Shown here piece by piece: positions 4,768 through 33,357 of a stretch of 64,000 bases of DNA. The position numbers and the translations under genes are program-made. Origin of the DNA: a virus. Taxonomy: Duplodnaviria; Caudoviricetes. Where the stretch lies: the IMG/VR virus record IMGVR_UViG_2758568729_000001, positions 32,001 to 96,000 of that record. One strand, given 5' to 3'. Numbering within the stretch: the stretch's first letter is position 1; every line of letters begins with the position of its first letter. Under the pieces are notes generated by a model. The model saw only the letters and a program-made list of their open reading frames with translations, had not been told where the DNA came from and made no database searches.

Positions 4768-4862
4768 CCCGCACCCATATCGGTGCACCCCCATGTGGCC
4801 GCGCACGTCGGCATGCTCGCCGCCGCGCTCGGGGGTGAGGGCACATCGAGCTGTAGTGACTG

Positions 4863-4893
4863 GCCCCCGAGGTGATTCTCGGGGGCTTCTCTT
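4863..4893 (+). terminator. Intrinsic terminator
   Basis: GCCCCCGAG-loop-CTCGGGGGC followed by TTCTCTTT. Confidence 0.7.
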
Positions 4894-4899
4894 TGGACA

Positions 4900-4956
4900 A
4901 ACTTGGTAGATGTTCTGTCGTTCAGTCGGTCAAACTGGTAACTTGGTAGATGTAAG
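4900..4956 (+). promoter_or_regulatory. Paired-box promoter (boxes 4900 and 4940)
   Basis: AACTTGGTAGATGT twice, 40 bp apart; second box preceded by T, giving -10 TAACTT. Confidence 0.85.
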
Positions 4957-4982
4957 GATTGTCGAGCGGCAAGGAGCGGGGC

Positions 4983-5381
4983 ATGTTCACCGAAGACGAC
5001 ATCATCCACCGGTACACCCGGGCGCAGGCCCTCGCCGACGGCACCCTGATCGACGCCGGACCGCTCGCACGAGAGGCCGGCTTCCGCTGGCCGGTCGCAC
5101 TCACCGCCGCCGCCTGGGCCGACTGCGTCGCCTGGACCGACGCCGATAACAAGCGCAAGGGCGCCATCCAGGACGAGACCGGTCGCCTGTGGGACGTCCT
5201 CAACATGGCCCGCTTCGCCGCCGCCCGCAGCGGCGGCGGCAACCGGATTCTGTTCCAACTCGTGCGGGTACCAGTCGCCGGCAAGGCCACCCGTCCCCGG
5301 CTGGTGACCCTCGCCCTGATGGCTGGCCCCGGTGACAACGGTGAGCCGGTCATGGTCATCGGCACCCCCGACGAGGACTGA
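4983..5381 (+). CDS. DUF6573-like protein
   Basis: IHRYTRAQALADGTLID...EAGFRWPVALTAAAW..CV...QDETGRLWDVL...GPGDNGEPV signature. Confidence 0.7.
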   Translation: MFTEDDIIHRYTRAQALADGTLIDAGPLAREAGFRWPVALTAAAWADCVAWTDADNKRKGAIQDETGRLWDVLNMARFAAARSGGGNRILFQLVRVPVAGKATRPRLVTLALMAGPGDNGEPVMVIGTPDED

Positions 5382-5384
5382 CCG

Positions 5385-6188
5385 ATGACCACCGACACCG
5401 CCGCCGCGCCGTACGTCACCGCCCTTACTGCTGCCGCCCTACCGGACTGGCTCCGCTGGCGGGTCGAGATCCGACCCCGGCGCCGCAGCCTCGGGATCAT
5501 CACCGAGCCTGGTGGCCAGGTCGTGATCGCCATCCCGCCGGGCGTGGACCCGCAACGGGTGGTCGCCGTGGTGCAAGCCAGCCTTGCTCAGCTACGCCGG
5601 CACGTGCGCGACAGCGAAGAGAGCGCCCTACGTCGCCCGGTCAAGGAACTGGTGAACGGCGAAGGGTTCCCCCTCCTGGGTGCGAACCACCGCCTGCGGC
5701 TCGTGGGCGACGCGGATATGCCGATCGTCGGCGAGCCGGGGCCGTCGACCTGGAGCGGCGTCCGGACCCGGCAACTGACCCTCCGTCGAGACGCGGCCAG
5801 CGCCGCCACCATCGTCGGCTGGTACCAGGCGCAGGGTCAGGCGTTCGCCGACCGGTACGCCCCGGAGATGGCCGCCCGCCTGGGTGTCGCCGACGGGCTG
5901 ACGGTGCGGGTACGCGGCTACCGGCCCGGCCAAGGCGTCGCGAGCTGGGGCACGTATCGCCCACGTACGCACAGCATTTCGCTCCACTGGTCCCTGTTCC
6001 AGCTTCCCCGGGAGATGCCCGAAGCGGTGCTGGCGCACGAGGTGGCGCACGCCGCCCGGCCGAGCGGAGGGCCGCACGGCCGGGGGTGGGAACGCCTGTT
6101 CGTGCGACTCGTACCCGAGTGGCGGGAGCGTGCGCGGGAGTTGGAGCTGGCTGCCCGATCGATGTGGTTCGGTGACGTAGCCCCCTGA
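5385..6188 (+). CDS. YgjP/DUF45 (M48/SprT-like) zinc metalloprotein
   Basis: NGEGFPLLG, SWGTY, ISLHWSLFQLP, VLAHEVAH (HExxH), H...W...VPEWRE. Confidence 0.8.
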   Translation: MTTDTAAAPYVTALTAAALPDWLRWRVEIRPRRRSLGIITEPGGQVVIAIPPGVDPQRVVAVVQASLAQLRRHVRDSEESALRRPVKELVNGEGFPLLGANHRLRLVGDADMPIVGEPGPSTWSGVRTRQLTLRRDAASAATIVGWYQAQGQAFADRYAPEMAARLGVADGLTVRVRGYRPGQGVASWGTYRPRTHSISLHWSLFQLPREMPEAVLAHEVAHAARPSGGPHGRGWERLFVRLVPEWRERARELELAARSMWFGDVAP

Positions 6189-6195
6189 CTCGATG

Positions 6196-6223
6196 GCCCC
6201 CGGGTGTCACCGGGGGCTTTCTT
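6196..6223 (+). terminator. Intrinsic terminator
   Basis: GCCCCCGG-loop-CCGGGGGC then TTTCTT. Confidence 0.7.
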
Positions 6224-6230
6224 GTGCCCG

Positions 6231-6287
6231 AACTTGGTAGATGTTCTGGCGGTAGCAAGGGAGATGCGGTAACTTGATAGATGTAAG
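6231..6287 (+). promoter_or_regulatory. Paired-box promoter (boxes 6231 and 6271)
   Basis: AACTTGGTAGATGT / AACTTGATAGATGT, 40 bp apart. Confidence 0.85.
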
Positions 6288-6313
6288 AGCTACCGAGCGC
6301 CACGGAGGCACGG

Positions 6314-7351
6314 ATGACCACCACGACGACCGAGCGAGTCACCCCCACCAGCAGCCCCGTCGAAATCGACACCCACCTCCACCGCCTCTACATCCGGGAG
6401 ATGCAGGCCACCCAGCGCCTCATGGCCGCGAACATCAGCCTCCACCGCGCCAACGGCGAAACCCCCGTGCACCTCGGCCGCCGGCAGGAATGGCCCACCA
6501 GCGACGCCGACGCGCTCGCCGCGTGCCGCGCCAAGGTCGCCGCCCCCGACTACAAGGAGGTCCCCTGGGGTTCCTCTCCCACCAAGGCCATCGCCGCTCT
6601 CACCGCCGCCACCGCCGACCTAGCCGCGATCGAAGCTGAAGCCGCGTCCCTCGAAGCGGAATGGGTCCGCCGGGGGCGCTGGACGCGGTACTTCACGGTG
6701 CAGCAGCACGACGGGCATATCCACTCCAGCATGAACTGTTCGACCTGCAACCGGGGCATGTCCGCCACCCGGTTCACCTGGAACCCGGACCTGTCCGGTC
6801 TGACCGAAGCGGAGGCGGTCGCCAAGCTTGGCCCGAATCTGTGCACCGTGTGTTTCCCCTCGGCCCCAGTGGAGTGGACGAGGGGCGCCGACACCGACGC
6901 CGTCGCCCTGGCCGATGGGTGGTGCCTCAACCGGGTGCCGACAGACAGCAACTACAACACCCACCGCCCGTACGGCCGCTGCAACGACTGCGACGCGCGG
7001 AACGTCCCCCTTACCCAGCAAGGGCTCCGCAAGCACAAGCACGAGCGGAACCTGACCGAGGCCGCCCGCAAGGCTCGACGCGAGGACCCGAAGCTGATCG
7101 GAACCCCGGAGGGGGACGAACTGCGGGTCGACCGCGAAACGATCAAAACGGTCGTCGCCGCGAAGAACCGCTACGTGTGGCACATGGAGTGGGTGCTGAC
7201 CAGCCGCAACCCGGCGTTCGCCGCCGACCACGCGAAGCACGCCGCGACGATCGCCGAGGCCCTGGCCGCGAAGCTCGGCAAGCGGGTGGACGAGATCCGG
7301 GCGGAGTTGCAGCCCCGCGTCACCAAGATGTTGAAGGCGTACGGCCGATGA
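6314..7351 (+). CDS. Cys/His-rich putative zinc-binding phage protein
   Basis: HIHSSMNCSTC...LCTVCFPSAP; second CxxC; RBS GGAGG. Confidence 0.7.
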   Translation: MTTTTTERVTPTSSPVEIDTHLHRLYIREMQATQRLMAANISLHRANGETPVHLGRRQEWPTSDADALAACRAKVAAPDYKEVPWGSSPTKAIAALTAATADLAAIEAEAASLEAEWVRRGRWTRYFTVQQHDGHIHSSMNCSTCNRGMSATRFTWNPDLSGLTEAEAVAKLGPNLCTVCFPSAPVEWTRGADTDAVALADGWCLNRVPTDSNYNTHRPYGRCNDCDARNVPLTQQGLRKHKHERNLTEAARKARREDPKLIGTPEGDELRVDRETIKTVVAAKNRYVWHMEWVLTSRNPAFAADHAKHAATIAEALAAKLGKRVDEIRAELQPRVTKMLKAYGR

Positions 7352-8436
7352 GCCCGGCCGCGGTGGGGGTGCTCGACCGCCCCCACCGGCCCGGCCTGCC
7401 CCCGGAGACCGGCGACGAAGCGGCCGACCTCGCCGCGTTCCTCGCATGGGAAGCCGACGAGCGGGAAGCCAGCAGGGCAGCCGCCGCCGAGTACCACCGG
7501 GAGTTGCGCCGCAAGTACGGGCTACGACCCGAACCGGCGACCATGAGCACCGAGTGGGGCGAGCTGACCAACCCCACCATCGACCGCGACGACCCGGCCC
7601 GCCGGCTGACTTACTACCTCGGTGCCCACCACCCGAGCTGGCTGAACTACTCCCCGGTGCCGTTGTTCATCTCCGCCGCGTCCCTCGCCCGGTACCGCAC
7701 CACCGGCGACAGGTGGCCTGTCCGGATGGGGATGACCTGGGCGCTCGACTCCGGCGCGTTCACCGCGCTCACCCCGGCCGGGATCGCCAAGGGCGACGCC
7801 CCGTGGTGGCAACACCCCGACGAGTACGGCGGCATGGCCACACGGTTCGCAGAGGAAGTCGGCCCGCCGGACTTCTGCGCGCCGCAGGACTGGCCGTGTG
7901 AGCCACCCGTACGGGAGCGGACCGGGATGACGGTCCGCGAGCACCAGCAGCTCACCCTGGACAACTTCCTGTACCTGCGGGAGGAGTTCTACTTCCTGCC
8001 CTGGATCCCGGTGTTGCAGGGTTGGGAGGCGGACGAGTACCTGGAGCATGCCGAGATGTACGAGGCCGCCGGGGTCGACCTGGCCGCCGCGTACCGGGTG
8101 GGTGTTGGGTCGATCTGCCGGCGCGGGCATGTCCCGTCGATCGTGCGGGTGATCGAGCAGTTCGCGTCGCGCGGGTACCGAATGCATGGTTTCGGGGTCA
8201 AGGTGACTGCGTTGCCGCTGATTGGTCACCTGTTCGCGTCGGCGGACTCGATGGCATGGTCGGACACCGCCCGGCGGGACCGGATCCGGCTGCCGGAGTG
8301 CACCCACCGGTCGAAGTCGGGGGAGTTGTCGGACTGCCGGAACTGCTTCCGCTGGGCGTTGAGGTGGCGGGAGCGGGTGTTGGAGTCGTTGCGGTCGGGT
8401 CGTCCCGCCCGGTCGTCGCAGCTCGCGCTGTTCTGA
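7348..8436 (+). CDS. Queuine tRNA-ribosyltransferase-like / DpdA-like base-exchange transglycosylase (DUF7221-like)
   Basis: ATGA coupling; LDSGAFT, APQDWPCEP, PVLQGW, VGVGSICRR, HGFGVK, SADSMAWS, C-terminal C.H...C..C. Confidence 0.8.
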   Translation: MSPAAVGVLDRPHRPGLPPETGDEAADLAAFLAWEADEREASRAAAAEYHRELRRKYGLRPEPATMSTEWGELTNPTIDRDDPARRLTYYLGAHHPSWLNYSPVPLFISAASLARYRTTGDRWPVRMGMTWALDSGAFTALTPAGIAKGDAPWWQHPDEYGGMATRFAEEVGPPDFCAPQDWPCEPPVRERTGMTVREHQQLTLDNFLYLREEFYFLPWIPVLQGWEADEYLEHAEMYEAAGVDLAAAYRVGVGSICRRGHVPSIVRVIEQFASRGYRMHGFGVKVTALPLIGHLFASADSMAWSDTARRDRIRLPECTHRSKSGELSDCRNCFRWALRWRERVLESLRSGRPARSSQLALF

Positions 8437-8440
8437 GCCA

Positions 8441-8494
8441 AACTTGGTAGATGTACTGGCTGTGACTGACCGTTCATGCTAACTTGATAGATAT
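8441..8494 (+). promoter_or_regulatory. Paired-box promoter (boxes 8441 and 8481)
   Basis: AACTTGGTAGATGT / AACTTGATAGATAT, 40 bp apart. Confidence 0.85.
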
Positions 8495-8521
8495 ACGGCG
8501 ACCGAGTTACCGGAGGCACCA

Positions 8522-10057
8522 ATGACCACTCGCAACCCCACCAAGGCGCAGCTCGTCGCACTGCTCGACGCCATCGCGAACGGCAATGAGGCGTTGCACA
8601 AGTACCGCAAAGACATGATCGACCGAATGGAGCTCGCCGGTCTCCTGGATGGTTACGCCGTCACCGACGCGGGCCGCGTGGCCGCTCACCGCAGCGACCC
8701 GACCGGGTACGCCCTGGCGATTGGCGTCGAGCCGGACGCGCACATCGCCGAGGGCAACGATCTCCGCACGGAGGCCGAGCGGGTTGCCGCCGGGCTGTCT
8801 TCGCAGATGATCGGCACCCTCGGTACGGGGCACGCCAGTGCGCATAGCGCCACGGTGATCGGTCGCCCGCAGGTCATGAAGGCGCTGCGCAGCCGTGGTC
8901 TGATCGGCAACGATGACCGCTGGACTCGACTCGGCTTGGAGGTTGCCGCCATCGTCCTCGGTGGCCGAGTGTGGTCGATCGACGAGCTGCACGTCATGGC
9001 GCTGAGTGATGAAGCGCACGCGGAAGCGCTCGCGATGAACGCCGAGCGCGACACGCAGTTGATCGAGCCCGCGCCTGCGCCGGCCCCGCTGACCACGCGA
9101 GACCTGAAGGTTGGCATGCGCGTCAAGATGCCCGCCGTGTGGTGCACGTCGGACGCACCGTGCGCCCAGTACCGCATCGTCACGAGCGACGCGCAACGCG
9201 AGCCGTACCACAGCCACTCCGTGGAATTCGACGGCGTTGGCGAGGTGTGGCGCTCGGACGCCGAGTGGGAGATCGAGTCCGCCGCGCACGCCGCGCTGGC
9301 GACCGGCCTGCCGCACGGCGTCGGACCGGCGTGCCTCGACGGATGCGTAACCGAAGGCGGGATCACGACGTGCCTCGACGGGTGCCCGCGCTTCGCGGCA
9401 GTCGCCGCAGCGAACCGCTCCACCGTCCGCCCGATCGCGGTCGGCGACCGCGTCCGGGGCCGCGACGTCACCATGGGAAGCACCGTGGAGGGCGCGGTCA
9501 CCGGCATCCTGTACCCGCGCGGACTCGGCTACTACCAGGACGAGCCGACCGACAGGCCGGTCCACTCGCGCAGGTACCACATCACGGCCGACGACGGCCG
9601 CACCCGAATCGTGGAGTGCGCCGAGCGGATCGAGCCGCCCGCCGCCCCGGAGCCGGACGAGATGAGCCAGGGGGAGCGCGACCAGCGCTCGTCCGACTAC
9701 TGGCAGGCCGCCACCGCCAACCTGCCGCGCGTACCCGCGTTCGAGCCGCCCGCGCCCGCCGACGGAGTGAGCGTCGACCAGTGGATCGCCGAGCAGGTGG
9801 CGCAGCTCAGCGAGAACGAGCTGCTGATGGTCAAGGGCGTACTGGACGACATTGCTGCTGGCCGACCGGTGGAGCACTTCGCGGTGGGCACGAAGGTATA
9901 CGTCGGCTCGTACGGCACTACCGAGTTCGTCGTTCAGGGAACGGCGCCGTGGCACGAGAACGGCGTGGTGTCGCGCAAGGTCGAGATCCGGAGCACGACG
10001 GGCAACCTTTCCGGCCACGTCGACCCGCGCGAGTTGCGGCGAGTCGACGAGTCATGA
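8522..10057 (+). CDS. Multidomain hypothetical protein (N-terminal winged-helix-like modules, several small SH3-like beta domains)
   Basis: RBS GGAGG; LKVGMRV, IAVGDRV, FAVGTKV repeats; N-terminus paralogous to 11384-12037. Confidence 0.65.
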   Translation: MTTRNPTKAQLVALLDAIANGNEALHKYRKDMIDRMELAGLLDGYAVTDAGRVAAHRSDPTGYALAIGVEPDAHIAEGNDLRTEAERVAAGLSSQMIGTLGTGHASAHSATVIGRPQVMKALRSRGLIGNDDRWTRLGLEVAAIVLGGRVWSIDELHVMALSDEAHAEALAMNAERDTQLIEPAPAPAPLTTRDLKVGMRVKMPAVWCTSDAPCAQYRIVTSDAQREPYHSHSVEFDGVGEVWRSDAEWEIESAAHAALATGLPHGVGPACLDGCVTEGGITTCLDGCPRFAAVAAANRSTVRPIAVGDRVRGRDVTMGSTVEGAVTGILYPRGLGYYQDEPTDRPVHSRRYHITADDGRTRIVECAERIEPPAAPEPDEMSQGERDQRSSDYWQAATANLPRVPAFEPPAPADGVSVDQWIAEQVAQLSENELLMVKGVLDDIAAGRPVEHFAVGTKVYVGSYGTTEFVVQGTAPWHENGVVSRKVEIRSTTGNLSGHVDPRELRRVDES

Positions 10058-10992
10058 GCCGAACTGGGGCCGAGCTGCCCAGCCTCGGGCAGCTCGGCCT
10101 GTTCGACCCCGGGTGGTGCCAGCGCTGGACCAACGGCAAGAGCCTGTGGCTGCCGACCGGGGATGAGCGGTTCAACCCGAAGCGGCACACCGTACGGGCC
10201 ATCCCGGAGCAGGTGGCCCGTGCGTTCATCTCGACCCACCACTACAGCCACTCGTACCCCGCCGCACGCCTGAGGTACGGCCTCTTTGAGGGCTGCCACC
10301 TGGTCGGCGTAGCGGTGATCGGGCAGCCGATGCACCGGCAGGTCACCGGCAAACCGTTCCCGACGCTGGGCAAGACTGCGGCCGAGTTATCCCGGTTCGT
10401 TTTGCTCGATCCGGTTCCGCCCCCGGCGGAGAGTTGGCTCCTCGGCCGGGTGTTCCGGCTGGCCGCCGCCGACGGGCTCCGTGGCCTGGTCGCGTTCAGC
10501 GACCCCATGCCCCGGCTGGCTATCAACGGTCAGTTGATCATGCCTGGTCACGTCGGCACCATCTACCAGGCGACCAACGGCCGCTACACCGGCCGGGCCA
10601 CCCGGCGCACCCTCGTCGTGCTGCCGGACGGGACCGTGTTCAGCGAACGCAGCCTGCAAAAGATCCGGGGCTGCGAACGGGCCGACGGCGAGCCCATGTC
10701 CCGGCTGGTGACGTATGGCGCCGAGCCGTTCTCCCCGTACCTGCCGCCGGTGGGTTGGCTGCCGGGGGAGTGGAACCGGTTGGACCGGTGGGCCGACCTT
10801 GACCTGCGGGGCCGGCGGAAGGTGTGGCTAAAGCACGCGCTGACCTCGATCGGCGCCCGCCGGGCGCGACACCGGGGCAACCACCGGTTCGTCTGGCCGC
10901 TCGGAGACCGGTCGCAGCGTCGCCGCACGGTGATCGCCCTGGACGCGCAGCCCTACCCCAAGACGACAGATCCGTGGGACCTGGCGGCGTAA
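10054..10992 (+). CDS. Mom-family (GNAT-fold) DNA adenine modification protein
   Basis: ATGA coupling; FISTHHYSHSYP, LVGVAV.G.P, ELSRFVLLD, AESW, LVAFSDP, GHVGTIYQATN..YTG. Confidence 0.8.
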   Translation: MSRTGAELPSLGQLGLFDPGWCQRWTNGKSLWLPTGDERFNPKRHTVRAIPEQVARAFISTHHYSHSYPAARLRYGLFEGCHLVGVAVIGQPMHRQVTGKPFPTLGKTAAELSRFVLLDPVPPPAESWLLGRVFRLAAADGLRGLVAFSDPMPRLAINGQLIMPGHVGTIYQATNGRYTGRATRRTLVVLPDGTVFSERSLQKIRGCERADGEPMSRLVTYGAEPFSPYLPPVGWLPGEWNRLDRWADLDLRGRRKVWLKHALTSIGARRARHRGNHRFVWPLGDRSQRRRTVIALDAQPYPKTTDPWDLAA

Positions 10993-11013
10993 GCCGAAGA
11001 GAGGCAGGACAAC

Positions 11014-11265
11014 ATGGCCAAAACCACCGCAGAAGCTTCATACACCGGCGACCAGGTGGAGGAGGCGTTGAGCAGGGCGGTTGACGACCTCCTGGACCGG
11101 GTCCAGCCGCTCGGCGAGGAGATCGGCGATGCCTTGCGCGTGTTGATGAACGTCGGCATGCACTACCTGGAGCACCCGGATGCTGCCGACCTCGAAGAGG
11201 CCATCGGGGCGAAGTACGCCGAGGACCCGGAGACCGTCATGGGGTGGGTGGCTGCGTGCGACTGA
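11014..11265 (+). CDS. Small acidic hypothetical protein
   Basis: 83 aa, E/D-rich, RBS AGGA. Confidence 0.6.
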   Translation: MAKTTAEASYTGDQVEEALSRAVDDLLDRVQPLGEEIGDALRVLMNVGMHYLEHPDAADLEEAIGAKYAEDPETVMGWVAACD

Positions 11266-11383
11266 CCTCGTCAGCGGCTCGACACGGCACCGGCCCGCCG
11301 ATCGGGCTGTACCCGCTCCCCGAGGACATCGACCGCCGGTCGTGATCAACAATGATCCGATCAGTGGAGAGGCCCGGACGACG

Positions 11384-12037
11384 ATGAACACGCCCACCCC
11401 CAGCCCGGCCCAGCTCAGAGCTTTGCTCGCCGCACTGGCCGGCGACCTCGCTGCTATCCAAACTGGTCGAACCACCAGGCGACGACTGGCTGCCAACGGA
11501 TGGCTCGACGGCCCGCACGCCGACTCGGAGATCACCGACGACGGCCGCGATGCAGCTCGGCGCGCATACCCACACGGGTACGCCGACGCCCTCTCCGTTG
11601 ACGAGGTCCCCGCCGAACTCGACCGGATCGTGGAGCCAGGCGAGCAGGCGTACGCGGTGTACAGGTGGAGCCGCGATCACCGGAAGTACGGGATCGCCGC
11701 TGCGGTTGCCGTCTTCGCCAACTACGGCATTGCCGAGGCGTACGCGGTTGCGCGGGAGCTGGTCGTCAGGTCGGTCTGGCGGGACCTGGGACCGGCGCCT
11801 GTTCCTGTGCTGGAGTCGACCCCGACCCCGGAGCCAACCCCGGATCCGGAGCCGGATCCGGACGACACGGTCCGCGTCGCAGGGGAGGGCGACGGTCGGT
11901 ACCGGGTCATCCGTCACGACGCCTCCGGCACCTGGGCCCTGATCGTGGCCGCCGACGTTGATCCCGACTCGACGCGGGGCGCCCGTTGGGTGTCGACACA
12001 CGAGGTCCGGTCGGCTCCGGACAAGGCGCCAGCCTGA
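11384..12037 (+). CDS. Hypothetical protein with N-terminal module paralogous to 8522-10057
   Basis: PSPAQLRALLAALAG...GWLDG...ITDDGRDAARRAYPHGYADAL. Confidence 0.65.
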   Translation: MNTPTPSPAQLRALLAALAGDLAAIQTGRTTRRRLAANGWLDGPHADSEITDDGRDAARRAYPHGYADALSVDEVPAELDRIVEPGEQAYAVYRWSRDHRKYGIAAAVAVFANYGIAEAYAVARELVVRSVWRDLGPAPVPVLESTPTPEPTPDPEPDPDDTVRVAGEGDGRYRVIRHDASGTWALIVAADVDPDSTRGARWVSTHEVRSAPDKAPA

Positions 12038-29780: not shown

Positions 29781-31061
29781 ATGACTACCGAAGTCGCGAC
29801 CCCACCAGCGGTGGAGAAGCCAAGCCCTGCCAAGGCACCCAAGGCGCAACCCACCGCCGACAAGCCCACCACCGTCCTCACCGTGCCCGCGAAGCCGGCT
29901 GCGGTTACCGGCGCCAACGTGGTCGCAATCGGCGGCACCGCAGCCGCTGCCGCCGGCCCGGTTGGTTGGGCTGTCGCCGCCGTCGTAGCCGGTGGCGCGG
30001 TCGCCGGGTACACCGTCCGCCGGGCGGTGATCCGCCGCAACGCGAAGGCTGACGGCGGCGGGACCCCGGGTGTCGGTCCTCTGTTCAGTGGCCGGCCACC
30101 TGCCGGCGGGGGGCGTAACAAGGGCTCGCGTGCCGGGGGAGGGGCGTCGAACCGGGCCGGGTCTGGCGGTACGAGCGGTGGTCGGTCGGACCGGTCGGGT
30201 GGCTCCTCGCGCACCGCAGCGCAGAGGGCGAAGTCGGCGGGCCGCAGCCTCCTGGACCGGCTGGGCCGCAAACCCGGCGGAGACAAGTCACCGGGCGGTG
30301 GGGGCGGGCGCAACAAGCGCACCACTGGAGGGCCGGCAAGCAAGATGAGCCGGGCCGCCGGCCGGGCCGCAGCCAGCGCAGCACGAGGGCTGTGGAACGC
30401 GGTCAAAGCACAACGGACCGCAGCCGCGAAGAAGAAGCAAGACCGCGCTGCCGCCGGCAAGAAGACGAAGCCTCAGAAGGCGTGGGGGTGGGCGCGGAAG
30501 ATCACGCGCCGGGTCCTCGGAAAGAAGGACCAGCCCAAGCCGGCCGCTAAGACACCCACGACGAAACCCGAAGCCCCGCGCGTGACCGGCGACAAGGTCC
30601 GCCGCGGTCAGGCGCCCGACGCCACCAACCAGAACCCGAGCAAGCCGGCGACCAACCGGGCCGCCCGCACCACCGAAAGGAACCCTCTCATGGGTAACAA
30701 CAACGCACAGCAGAGCACCAGCCCATTCTGGGCGGCGGCCCGGCAGGTCCACGCCACCGCAGCCCAGCACAAGCCCCGTGGCATGCTCGCCCGCCGGCAG
30801 GAGGCATTCGAGATGCCCGCCGCGCTCGGTGAGATCGCCGCCGGTCTGCGGCTCCTCGCCCAGACCCACACCTCCCAGGAGCCCCTGGAGCCGGCGTACG
30901 CCGCTGCGGTCATGCAGGTCGCCGCCACGGTCGAGTCCGCCGCCCAGGCGTCCCGCCACCTCGCCCCCGCCTTCGACGCACTCCACTCCGTCCAGGTCCG
31001 CCGGCTGTTGCAGCCGAAGGTCGGCGAGGACATGTGGGACACCGTCAACAACAAGCCCTGA
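29781..31061 (+). CDS. Transfer-associated protein (TM + basic Gly-rich linker + C-terminal helical domain)
   Basis: RBS AAGGAGG; immediately upstream of traB. Confidence 0.65.
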   Translation: MTTEVATPPAVEKPSPAKAPKAQPTADKPTTVLTVPAKPAAVTGANVVAIGGTAAAAAGPVGWAVAAVVAGGAVAGYTVRRAVIRRNAKADGGGTPGVGPLFSGRPPAGGGRNKGSRAGGGASNRAGSGGTSGGRSDRSGGSSRTAAQRAKSAGRSLLDRLGRKPGGDKSPGGGGGRNKRTTGGPASKMSRAAGRAAASAARGLWNAVKAQRTAAAKKKQDRAAAGKKTKPQKAWGWARKITRRVLGKKDQPKPAAKTPTTKPEAPRVTGDKVRRGQAPDATNQNPSKPATNRAARTTERNPLMGNNNAQQSTSPFWAAARQVHATAAQHKPRGMLARRQEAFEMPAALGEIAAGLRLLAQTHTSQEPLEPAYAAAVMQVAATVESAAQASRHLAPAFDALHSVQVRRLLQPKVGEDMWDTVNNKP

Positions 31062-31074
31062 TCGGACGACGACG

Positions 31075-33357
31075 ATGACGACGAGCAAGCGACGCCAGAA
31101 CAAGAACTGGCAGCTCGACTGGGCTGGCCGGCACGGCACCGCCTGGGGCACCGTCAACGCCTGCCTCACGGTGGTGTCCGTGGCGGTCGTCGGCCGGTAC
31201 GTGCAGGGCTGGTGGCCGATCCGGGAAACCCCGATGCTGCTGTTCGCCGCTGCGCTGACCGTGCTCGCCGTCGTCGCCGTTCTCGGCCGGGCGGCGGTAC
31301 GGAAGACCGGCACACCGGGCGCGACCGTCTTCTACCAGGTGTGCTGCATGGTCGGCGCCGGCATCTGGGTCATGTTCATGTACGCGGCCGACCAGTGGAC
31401 ATGGCGGTCGGTGATCTCCGGTGTCGCCGCCCTCGCGTTCGCGGCCATCGTCGCCGGGGTGCTCGCCGGGCTCGCGTCCGACGACCCACCCCCGGCAGAC
31501 GACGAGAAGAAGGAGGAGGAGGTTCCAGCTCGGCCGACCGTCGGCCCCGACGGGAACCCGGACGAGACCCTGCCAAAACGCAACGCCCTCGCGATCGAGT
31601 GGGAAGAACGGCTCAACCGGCTGTGCGACGTGCCGAAGGGCAGCACCGTGCAGGTGCCAAACGTCGAACTGTGGCCCAAGGGCAACGGGTACACCGTGGA
31701 AGCGGTCATGCCGGCCGTTGGTGGGTTGTCGTGGAAGACGGTCAACCAAGCGGCCGACTCGCTCGCCAACGACCTCGACCTTGACGAAGGGTGCCGCCTG
31801 AACGTCGAGATGGGGCCGTCCCGTCGGGTCGCGCTCATCGAGGTGATGACCCAATCGACCTTAGGGGAGGACCAACCGTACGGGGACGACTACAGCCCTC
31901 TGTCGATCTACGACCCACTCCCCGGTGCCGTACGCGATGACGGCACGGAGATCGGCCCCGAACTGCGGTCGAAGTGCATGCTCCTCGTCGGCGAAACCGG
32001 GTCCGGTAAGACCAACGCCGGCAACGTCATCGGCGTAGGCGTGGCCCGCTGCCGCGACGCCCTGCTGTGGGACATCGATTTCACTGCCGGCCTGTACCTC
32101 AACCTCCTCGCCGCGTTCATGGCAGGCAAGGCCAAGCAGCCGGCAGTCGACTGGGCGGCGTGGGACGAACACGAAGCCCTGCTGATGACCCGCGCGGCGA
32201 TGCGCGGCCACCGGGCTCGGAAGTCCGGCTACCTGGAGCTGATGCGCGAGGTCGATGACGACAAGATCCCCGTGTCGGCGGAGGTGCCCGAGGTGGTCAT
32301 CCGGGCGGACGAGATCAAACGCATCACCGGTGCCCCCTCCGAGTACCCCGAACTCAAGCAGCACCTCAGCGACATCATTTTTGAGGGGCGTGCGGCGGCC
32401 TTCCGGGAAGTCCTCCTCGGGCTCCGGGCCACAGCGGACATCGTCGACACCGGCATCCAGGCCCAGTGCGGTGTGATCGCGGTGACCCGGGCCAAGTCCG
32501 ACGCCGAGTACGCGTGGGCGTTCGGGTGGCACTCCGGCGCCACCGTGGAAGGCGCACCCCACCCTGGGTGCGGCTTCATCTCATTGGAGTCCGGGGCGAA
32601 GCCAATCCCGGAGAAGTGGCGCAGGCTGCGCCCCAAGCAGTTGATGGAGGTAGGCATGGCCGTGGACGGTATTCAGCCACAGATGGACGAACTGACCCGG
32701 CTGGCACTCGACGGACGGAACCCGGACGGGACACCGATGCAGGGGCTCCTCCCCGGTGACCTGGACTGCTACTCGACTAGGTGGGAGAGGTTCCGGGACC
32801 GGTTCGGCGGTGACCACCCGTCGCAGCCGGGGCTGCCGACGCCGCCGGCCGACGATGTCGAGTCGAACGCCGCCCAGGGTGTGCGCAGCGAGGGCGACGA
32901 GCTGCCGACGCCGCCGGCCGGGCCGGTCGTGTCTCAGGCGCAGGCGCTTTCCGACCTCGCCGCCACGATGGCCACTCTTCAGGAGGCGGTCGCCAAGGCC
33001 AAGGCCGAGCACGGCGAGGATGCCAACCTGCCCCCGTATGACCCGCAACTGCACGCCGATTTCGATGCCATTCTCGAAGCCGAAGGGTTCGGCACTGATG
33101 TGGACTGGGGTGACCCGGACAACTGGGCAACGCTGGTGGAGAGCGCACCGCAGCCCGACGACGAGGACAAGCTGCTCAACCTGATCCGTGATGCCGGCCC
33201 GACCGGTGCCCGCCCTCGGGACCTGCTGAACCAGTTGAAGGAGCAGCACGGCATCGTCACCAGCCGGGACACACTCCACACCCGGTTGCGGGCTCTCCGC
33301 GACGCCGGCAAGGTCCACAACCGGGAACACGGCCGCTGGAAGCTTGAGACGAACTGA
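31075..33357 (+). CDS. traB: TraB-like FtsK/SpoIIIE conjugative dsDNA translocase
   Basis: N-terminal TM helices, Walker A GETGSGKT, Walker B VVIRADE, GRAAAFREVLLGLRAT, C-terminal winged helix. Confidence 0.8.
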   Translation: MTTSKRRQNKNWQLDWAGRHGTAWGTVNACLTVVSVAVVGRYVQGWWPIRETPMLLFAAALTVLAVVAVLGRAAVRKTGTPGATVFYQVCCMVGAGIWVMFMYAADQWTWRSVISGVAALAFAAIVAGVLAGLASDDPPPADDEKKEEEVPARPTVGPDGNPDETLPKRNALAIEWEERLNRLCDVPKGSTVQVPNVELWPKGNGYTVEAVMPAVGGLSWKTVNQAADSLANDLDLDEGCRLNVEMGPSRRVALIEVMTQSTLGEDQPYGDDYSPLSIYDPLPGAVRDDGTEIGPELRSKCMLLVGETGSGKTNAGNVIGVGVARCRDALLWDIDFTAGLYLNLLAAFMAGKAKQPAVDWAAWDEHEALLMTRAAMRGHRARKSGYLELMREVDDDKIPVSAEVPEVVIRADEIKRITGAPSEYPELKQHLSDIIFEGRAAAFREVLLGLRATADIVDTGIQAQCGVIAVTRAKSDAEYAWAFGWHSGATVEGAPHPGCGFISLESGAKPIPEKWRRLRPKQLMEVGMAVDGIQPQMDELTRLALDGRNPDGTPMQGLLPGDLDCYSTRWERFRDRFGGDHPSQPGLPTPPADDVESNAAQGVRSEGDELPTPPAGPVVSQAQALSDLAATMATLQEAVAKAKAEHGEDANLPPYDPQLHADFDAILEAEGFGTDVDWGDPDNWATLVESAPQPDDEDKLLNLIRDAGPTGARPRDLLNQLKEQHGIVTSRDTLHTRLRALRDAGKVHNREHGRWKLETN

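Follow-up and report, generated by a model that had tools for sequence, protein, structure and literature searches.

A candidate DNA-modification island in an actinobacterial prophage links a DpdA-family gene with a Mom-family gene and candidate clamp-binding motifs

The closest described systems to the locus reported here are built on two families of DNA-modifying enzymes. DpdA of phage Rosebush and of the bacterial Dpd systems is presumed to exchange guanine by a double displacement that uses two catalytic aspartates (PMC6884629, PMC10164549, PDB 7UI4), and three aspartates of the Salmonella enzyme (D95, D130 and D256) are essential (PMC10164549). Phages that carry DpdA only form the third group of Hutinet et al. 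2019, described there as hard to predict (PMC6884629). Mom of phage Mu attaches glycine, taken from Gly-tRNA(Gly), to the N6 of adenine in duplex DNA, after which the adduct rearranges (PMC13219725, 2026), and its important residues are H58, Y59, R111, S124, D149, R151 and Y159 (PMC13219725). Homologues of both enzymes lie close together in the stretch analysed here (IMG/VR record IMGVR_UViG_2758568729_000001), a window of 64,000 nucleotides (nt) that corresponds to positions 8,188,949-8,252,948 of a single-contig genome of 8.74 Mb, 100% complete and with a GC content of ~69%. The element is a large siphovirus-like prophage of at least ~120 kb, near one end of an actinobacterial chromosome, and the host, a high-GC actinobacterium, probably belongs to the family Micromonosporaceae. 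The best supported general reading of the locus is a dual DNA-modification, anti-restriction island. Its four co-oriented open reading frames (ORFs) are named P0001 to P0004 in order of position; the two putative modification enzymes and their terminal motifs are the following (lengths in amino acids, aa).

7348..8436, + strand: P0002, homologue of the DpdA-family DNA-guanine transglycosylases, 362 aa (Pfam PF23859)
8419..8433, + strand: codons of QLALF, the last five of DpdA, a candidate beta-clamp-binding motif
10054..10992, + strand: P0004, Mom-family GNAT, 312 aa (Pfam PF25680)
10090..10104, + strand: QLGLF, Mom codons 13-17, a candidate beta-clamp-binding motif in a low-confidence N-terminal tail that is probably disordered

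P0002 matched the Pfam DpdA profile PF23859 over residues 88-346 (214 bits for a cut-off of 27, E 2.7e-63) as well as phrog_1279 (E 6e-65). This supplies the profile assignment to DpdA proposed in an earlier note on this DNA, and the TGT-barrel motifs that the note had read at 7348-8436 (DSGAF, QDWPCEP, PVLQG, HGFG and SADSMAW) are all present. In alignments with the relatives of P0002, D134 (DSG), D181 (PQD) and D300 (ADSMAWS) are invariant or nearly so, and the zinc-site cluster C318-x-H320...C330-x-x-C333 is kept. By motif and spacing, these three aspartates would be the counterparts of the acid/base, the base-recognition and the nucleophile residue in Salmonella DpdA, an equivalence that we infer in this way because sequence searches missed the solved entry 7UI4. 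The double-displacement guanine exchange with two catalytic aspartates presumed for the Rosebush and bacterial Dpd enzymes is presumed for P0002 as well.

Over the core, the identity of P0002 with 'DpdA-only' enzymes from mycobacteriophages of clusters B1 and K amounts to 40-44%. Those of Orion (gp20, cluster B1) and Beezoo (gp40, cluster K) fall in the same Pfam family and have the same DSGxF, PQDW, VLQG and ADSMAWS motifs and Cys/His site; Orion gp20, 41% identical to P0002, is the nearest homologue tested for modification. As with the window element, both phage and host are devoid of preQ0 genes in this mycobacteriophage group. P0002 differs from the mycobacteriophage enzymes in having an 87-aa N-terminal extension before the DpdA core, the C-terminal QLALF and a linked Mom-like gene, and no gene of the latter type was seen in the regions of Beezoo, Dingo, Paola and Edugator that were inspected. 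In Rosebush, the gene upstream of DpdA is likewise translationally coupled to it, but DpdA stands there behind a ParB-like gene and ahead of QueC, QueD, QueE and FolE genes, which the window element lacks. BLASTP did not align P0002 with Rosebush gp2, nor P0001 with the ParB-like gp1; the PADLOC Dpd models did not match P0002, and the genome has no DpdB-like homologue of Rosebush gp1. P0002 is a member of the unexplained DpdA-only group, with guanine exchange in DNA as its most likely activity.

P0004 was assigned to the Mom family by PF25680 (86.8 bits for a cut-off of 27.1, E 2e-24) and phrog_1384 (E 2e-33), in agreement with the Mom-family GNAT that had been recognised at 10054-10992. The best solved match of its AlphaFold2 (AF2) model, which has a mean predicted local distance difference test (pLDDT) score of 87.5, was Mu Mom (8BV8_A, E 1.6e-11, template modelling (TM) score 0.70 by target), ahead by six orders of magnitude of the other GNATs (E 7e-5 or worse). 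Identity to Mu Mom is only about 20%, yet phmmer aligns the two proteins as far as a common C-terminal PYPK, and the active-site equivalents are kept as well as this PYP(K): Mu H58, Y59, R111, S124, D149 and Y159 align with P0004 H63, Y64, R114, S127, D150 and Y171. Over the 45 members of the clade (P0004 and 44 relatives), H63, Y64, R114, D150 and Y171 are invariant, and the position of S127 holds Ser in 33 members and Thr in 12. An invariant R154 lies four residues past D150 (D-P-x-P-R, for D-E-R in Mu) and may stand in for Mu R151. Compared with the Mu enzyme, P0004 is 80 aa longer, with the N-terminal QLGLF tail and a larger helical insertion, and it is placed on box promoters common to many genes, whereas Mu Mom depends on a Com/C-type late circuit. 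A helical segment between strands of the model, at residues 198-265, is a possible counterpart of the helix-turn-helix-like insertion of Mu Mom (residues 175-209). The glycyl donor of Mu Mom is tRNA-Gly, and tRNAs of the same kind occur in the prophage: ARAGORN found 35 tRNA genes on the minus strand at G000:C1:8166942-8174402, 15-22 kb before the window, including two tRNA-Gly genes with anticodons GCC and TCC. By analogy with Mu Mom, P0004 is likely an aminoacyl-tRNA-dependent modifier of adenine N6 in DNA.

Both enzymes carry a candidate docking motif for the sliding clamp. QLxLF, or QL[SD]LF, is the beta-clamp-binding consensus of polymerases, repair enzymes and transposases, and is usually terminal (PMC4549789, PMC12309361). 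An exact match stands at the C-terminal end of P0002 (QLALF) and in the N-terminal tail of P0004 (QLGLF, residues 13-17, pLDDT below 50), and a DnaN gene is present in the same prophage. Among the 223 proteins called over 150 kb of prophage, Q[LIVM]x[LIVM]F occurs in three, each time at a terminus: DpdA, Mom and a homologue of PglX-like methylases that ends in QQLDLFGEAA and is encoded outside the window, ~3.5 kb from the phage DnaN gene. As a control, none of 865 proteins from 1 Mb of host DNA has a terminal QL.LF. The two further genes are as follows.

Window coordinates 94688-95863 (L052:3636-4811), - strand: homologue of the N-terminal third of PglX/type IIG methylases, 391 aa (PADLOC E 1e-29)
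G000:C1:8288273-8289565 (L052:8273-9565), - strand: phage DnaN (430-aa ORF with all three clamp domains), ~35 kb past the window

The host has its own DnaN copy at 4.237 Mb. In relatives, QLxLF is found in 11 of 45 Mom-clade N-termini and at no other position of those proteins, in the DpdA tails of loci L013, L015 and L022, and in the methylase tail of L013. The terminal motifs, together with a phage-encoded DnaN, argue that these enzymes act on DNA, and against their acting mainly on RNA or protein. Judging from these motifs, DpdA and Mom would dock on the sliding clamp, either that of the phage or that of the host. A clamp motif on both enzymes looks new, as none was reported on DpdA or Mom in the literature searched. 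As a separate observation, at L022 a protein encoded upstream of Mom (about 9960-9985) ends in QLPLFVSTWGAS, which combines QLxLF with an FVSxW(G) tail.

The neighbourhood of the two genes recurs in relatives. Homologues of P0004 with 40-60% identity were found in genomes of Micromonospora, Plantactinospora, Salinispora, Dactylosporangium, Actinoplanes and Nucisporomicrobium and in two IMG/VR contigs, and in nine of ten close Mom relatives a DpdA gene lies within 6 kb, the exception being Nucisporomicrobium, where Mom is frameshifted. At least five gene orders exist among the close DpdA-Mom loci, as listed below.

Mom, N6/N4 methylase and DpdA, each stop overlapping the next start
Mom directly followed by DpdA
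DpdA, Mom, N6 methylase
DpdA followed by Mom, the two overlapping by 4 bp (L019, L030, L032)
Mom, a 5 kb gap, DpdA
DpdA, P0003, Mom, the order in the window

A tblastn search of all genes called in the window against the loci of the relatives recovered only DpdA, Mom and, twice, a YgjP-like gene, so the pairing is not simple synteny of one phage lineage. Of 401 sampled genomes of the host's family, 29 have a Mom match above threshold and 52 a DpdA match, and 16 of the 29 Mom-positive genomes (17 places) have DpdA at most 12 kb away on the same contig, mostly at 0.07-1.6 kb. The bit scores of the paired DpdA copies range from 135 to 318, a spread indicating that several DpdA subclades take part in the pairing. 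DpdA and Mom distances are correlated over ten pairs (r 0.49, Mantel p about 0.007), a value that overstates independence because the pairs are themselves related. DNA methylases are often part of the same operons, and YgjP-like homologues occur upstream of Mom at L021:8817-9656 and L022:8095-8889, and upstream of a P0003-like gene at L010:4179-5045; the YgjP-like peptidase may be another anti-restriction component. The recurring partnership is thus that of DpdA and Mom, in many cases close to genes for a methylase and a YgjP-like peptidase, and the pairing is frequent but not obligatory. Such recurrent linkage looks new, no description of it having been found in the literature searched.

Several copies of these genes are damaged. 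The Mom genes of Salinispora (L018) and Nucisporomicrobium (L016) carry frameshifts, that at L020 (3128-3466, 10001-10465) is split by ~6.5 kb near residue 127, and DpdA is interrupted by ~6.7 kb near residue 285 at L034 (G247:C4; 8534-9211, 15883-15999), which suggests that the module is decaying or being invaded in some lysogens. Outside the host's family, Mom-like genes also stand alone or beside a C5 methylase and a PAPS-reductase-like gene; on a Streptomyces sp. contig (L042:4963-5994), Mom lies between a C5 DNA methylase gene and an overlapping PAPS-reductase-like gene, without DpdA, so members of one Mom clade have differing sets of companions. On the host chromosome itself there is a second, shorter DpdA-family gene (G000:C1:3126685-3127527, L008:6685-7527; 280 aa, 259 bits), which was considered as part of a Dpd cluster and rejected, its neighbours at 3.127 Mb being a superoxide dismutase and a DUF4192 protein, with no Dpd or Que genes. 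A 50-aa Mom-like fragment (3110753-3110902) lies 16 kb from this second DpdA.

In the window, each of the two enzymes is encoded by the second gene of a two-gene cassette, in a block that begins with a further cassette.

4862..4887, + strand: terminator-like hairpin with T-run, directly before the first box pair of the block
4900..4953, + strand: paired 14-nt boxes (4900, 4940), preceding the DUF6573/YgjP-like cassette
4959..5381, + strand: DUF6573 protein, 140 aa (Pfam PF20213, E 1e-25)
5385..6188, + strand: YgjP-like/SprT-like metallopeptidase, 267 aa (Pfam PF01863, E 2e-23)
6195..6218, + strand: terminator-like hairpin ending the previous cassette
6231..6284, + strand: paired boxes (6231, 6271), likely promoter/operator, 30 nt upstream of the P0001 start codon
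6314..7351, + strand: P0001, 345 aa (phrog_2433, E 2e-44)
8441..8494, + strand: paired boxes (8441, 8481), starting 5 nt past the DpdA stop codon
8522..10057, + strand: P0003, 511 aa, a mosaic near-orphan

Third-position GC is 0.88-0.91 in all four co-oriented ORFs, values high enough to indicate that they are coding. The box AACTTGRTAGATRT is present in 18 copies on the + strand, for 0.11 expected, and is paired at 40-nt spacing, with one pair ahead of each of the two cassettes (6231/6271 and 8441/8481). Both pairs precede genes joined by an ATGA overlap, at 7348-7351 (P0001/DpdA) and 10054-10057 (P0003/Mom), and the paired-box cassettes with ATGA-coupled second genes that had been described from this DNA are thus borne out. 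Terminator-like hairpins stand ahead of the box pairs at 4900 and 6231; a terminator search found none between the DpdA stop and P0003 and none 3' of Mom. Since no terminator separates the cassettes, read-through from the first into the second is plausible, and the two enzymes are probably co-transcribed.

We regard it as moderately probable that the locus is a DNA-modification (anti-restriction) island in which Mom modifies adenine and DpdA exchanges guanine, both docked on the clamp, with replicated phage DNA as the modified product. Two unrelated enzymes would be expressed from repeated paired-box promoters, probably by co-transcription. The Mom-like GNAT would move an aminoacyl group (glycyl in Mu) from a charged tRNA onto the adenine N6 of double-stranded DNA, and the DpdA-family enzyme would exchange guanine in DNA for another base, other than preQ0 made by phage or host. 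The QLxLF tails would dock both enzymes on the sliding clamp, and newly replicated phage DNA would by this docking be modified at the fork. The adenine arm has a good analogy in Mu Mom. A dual modification of G and A had already been suggested in the earlier note; its two modification families, their common boxes and the lack of a preQ0 pathway all stand, its upstream partners do not (see below), and the guanine arm is unproven, given the negative result for Orion.

Several observations weigh against this reading. No match to QueC, QueE (TIGR04508), TGT or Vut_1/YhhQ was found in the 100% complete genome by searches that detected most control genomes, and QueC is present in only three of the 16 genomes with a DpdA-Mom pair, never adjacent to it. 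Orion DNA contained none of the five known 7-deazaguanines (PMC6884629), a result suggesting that the DpdA clade of P0002 may have no detectable effect on DNA in hosts of this kind. For P0002, neither phmmer nor a 4-sequence profile reached any solved DpdA or TGT. In P0004, the spacing of the D-P-x-P-R motif differs from that of Mu, and the Mu dimer-interface residue W48 is replaced by Q53, at a position that is variable in the clade. Finally, many Mom-like genes are solitary or have methylases as their only companions, and many DpdA genes have no Mom neighbour, and the pairing may reflect only the clustering of anti-restriction genes.

The source of the inserted base bears on the next explanation. 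As the earlier note had reported, no queC, queD or queE gene was found in the window, and the search of element and host that it had proposed now extends the absence of QueC, QueE, TGT and YhhQ to the whole genome. A tblastn search of the genome with the Rosebush Que proteins, ParB-like gp1 and DpdA recovered the housekeeping FolE only, and a single PTPS homologue is present, at 674 kb. With no preQ0 pathway in phage or host, any inserted base is not self-made preQ0. In the sample of 401 genomes, about 45 have a genuine QueC (E < 1e-45), among them two species of the host's genus (G001, G002); this tally includes one unpublished genome, G140, and nothing else reported here depends on G140 or G197. 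DpdA might accordingly be conditional or idle, inserting preQ0-type bases only in hosts that make preQ0, while Mom modifies adenine; we find this doubtful, although it ranks first among the alternatives. It would account for the lack of known 7-deazaguanines in Orion, whose DpdA is 41% identical and whose host has no preQ0; the QueC-positive members of the family, G001 and G002 included, are hosts that could supply preQ0, and in E. coli the DpdA of phage 9g on its own inserted the host's preQ0 into a plasmid (PMC6884629). It fits less well with the catalytic residues being kept in divergent copies from genomes that mostly lack QueC (13 of 16), with the pair not being enriched in QueC-positive genomes, and with the absence of a YhhQ-type importer, and regular use is suggested by the common clamp motif and by a coupling to Mom that is tight and often translational.

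We consider it unlikely that DpdA and Mom form one pathway to one new base, acting in sequence at the same position in a hypermodification not derived from preQ0, for example by aminoacylation from tRNA of a base that was inserted or already resident. Other phage enzymes do decorate 7-deazaguanines before or after insertion, the pairing recurs in variable order with 4-bp overlaps and correlated divergence, and the usual substrate pathway of DpdA is absent. Each family nevertheless acts alone elsewhere (Mu Mom, mycobacteriophage DpdA and stand-alone Mom-like genes), P0004 has the active-site residues of the Mu enzyme, which modifies adenine, the methylases of the same operons fit a set of independent modifiers, and no source of an unusual free base was found.

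Action of one or both enzymes on tRNA, such as the phage's own 35 tRNAs, is very improbable: although DpdA is a homologue of TGT in a host without TGT, the phage tRNA array is large and Mom binds tRNA as co-substrate (PMC13219725), both enzymes share a terminal clamp-type motif with a DNA methylase homologue in a phage that encodes a clamp, Pfam places P0002 in DpdA, the genome search for the TGT family was empty at the P0002 locus, DNA methylases belong to the same operons in relatives, and all characterised members of both families modify DNA.

The suggestion that the coupled upstream genes are partners of the enzymes was not upheld. Related DpdA-Mom loci lack both P0001 and P0003, and in the co-occurrence check of the coupled pairs, the closest relatives of P0001 had no DpdA neighbour and homologues of P0003 no Mom neighbour. 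P0001 belongs to phrog_2433, a family widespread in actinophages with at least 304 homologues and 311 phage records, and consists of a long helical hairpin, a Cys/His-rich beta domain with an invariant GHxH and three CxxC, and a helical C-terminal domain (AF2 model, pLDDT 94). Foldseek gave no match to its fold at E <= 0.001, VIA-align matched the coiled-coil hairpin only (Z < 8), and Atlas returned only unnamed viral clusters. A role as DpdA partner was largely rejected, since the four closest homologues are followed by small unrelated genes and no DpdA; the family occurs in phages of Microbacterium, Gordonia and Arthrobacter, and a DpdA search gave no match in phages of these hosts. A residual lead comes from cluster K mycobacteriophages, in which DpdA and a P0001-like gene are separated by 1-1.5 kb, at two distinct places in the genome. 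As an analogue of DpdB, P0001 was rejected for having no similarity to the ParB-like gp1 of Rosebush, no ParB Pfam match and no PADLOC match. A DUF6573 homologue, 65% identical, stands upstream of the P0001 homologue at locus L028.

P0003 was rejected as a partner of Mom: it has no phage match, and 5.8 billion proteins yielded just two homologues, both partial and neither of them beside Mom. Its modules 258-395 and 395-511 are found separately in two metagenome proteins, and its first 70 residues (8522-8731) are 42% identical to residues 69-141 (11384-11602) of the ORF at 11180-12037. Three segments of the VGxRV/KV type (around residues 196, 306 and 454) can also be recognised in P0003; their sequence suggests small beta-barrel modules. 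Atlas gave only weak leads (TM < 0.3), to small beta-barrel Tudor/CarD-RID-like domains. In the metagenome relative L010, a YgjP-like gene is directly followed by a P0003-like gene with no cassette in between, so that the P0001-DpdA cassette looks like an insertable unit.

As to the element itself, the window also encodes Sipho_Gp37, an amidase and a 1168-aa protein of tape-measure size. Near-identity DNA searches with positions 6000-11200 against phage and plasmid collections gave no match, ten neighbour genes of the locus had no match in PHROGs, and the 859-aa protein at 30778-33357 had no FtsK/SpoIIIE Pfam match at E 0.001, with a weak CPP1-like match only.

Attention was drawn in 2019 to phages that have DpdA but cannot make a 7-deazaguanine, as a case without explanation; Orion, the one tested, was negative. 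The present locus assigns a DpdA-only enzyme to a recurring module together with DNA methylases and an enzyme of the Mom type, with a candidate clamp motif and a phage clamp. In a stronger form, which we put forward tentatively and think rather unlikely as a whole, DpdA and Mom would constitute a replication-coupled, clamp-tethered machine of actinobacterial phages, responsible for at least one base modification not derived from preQ0. If true, this would account for a long-standing puzzle, the 'DpdA-only' phages whose hosts have no queuosine genes. The motif, if functional, would also reveal how phages restrict promiscuous DNA modifiers to DNA under replication.

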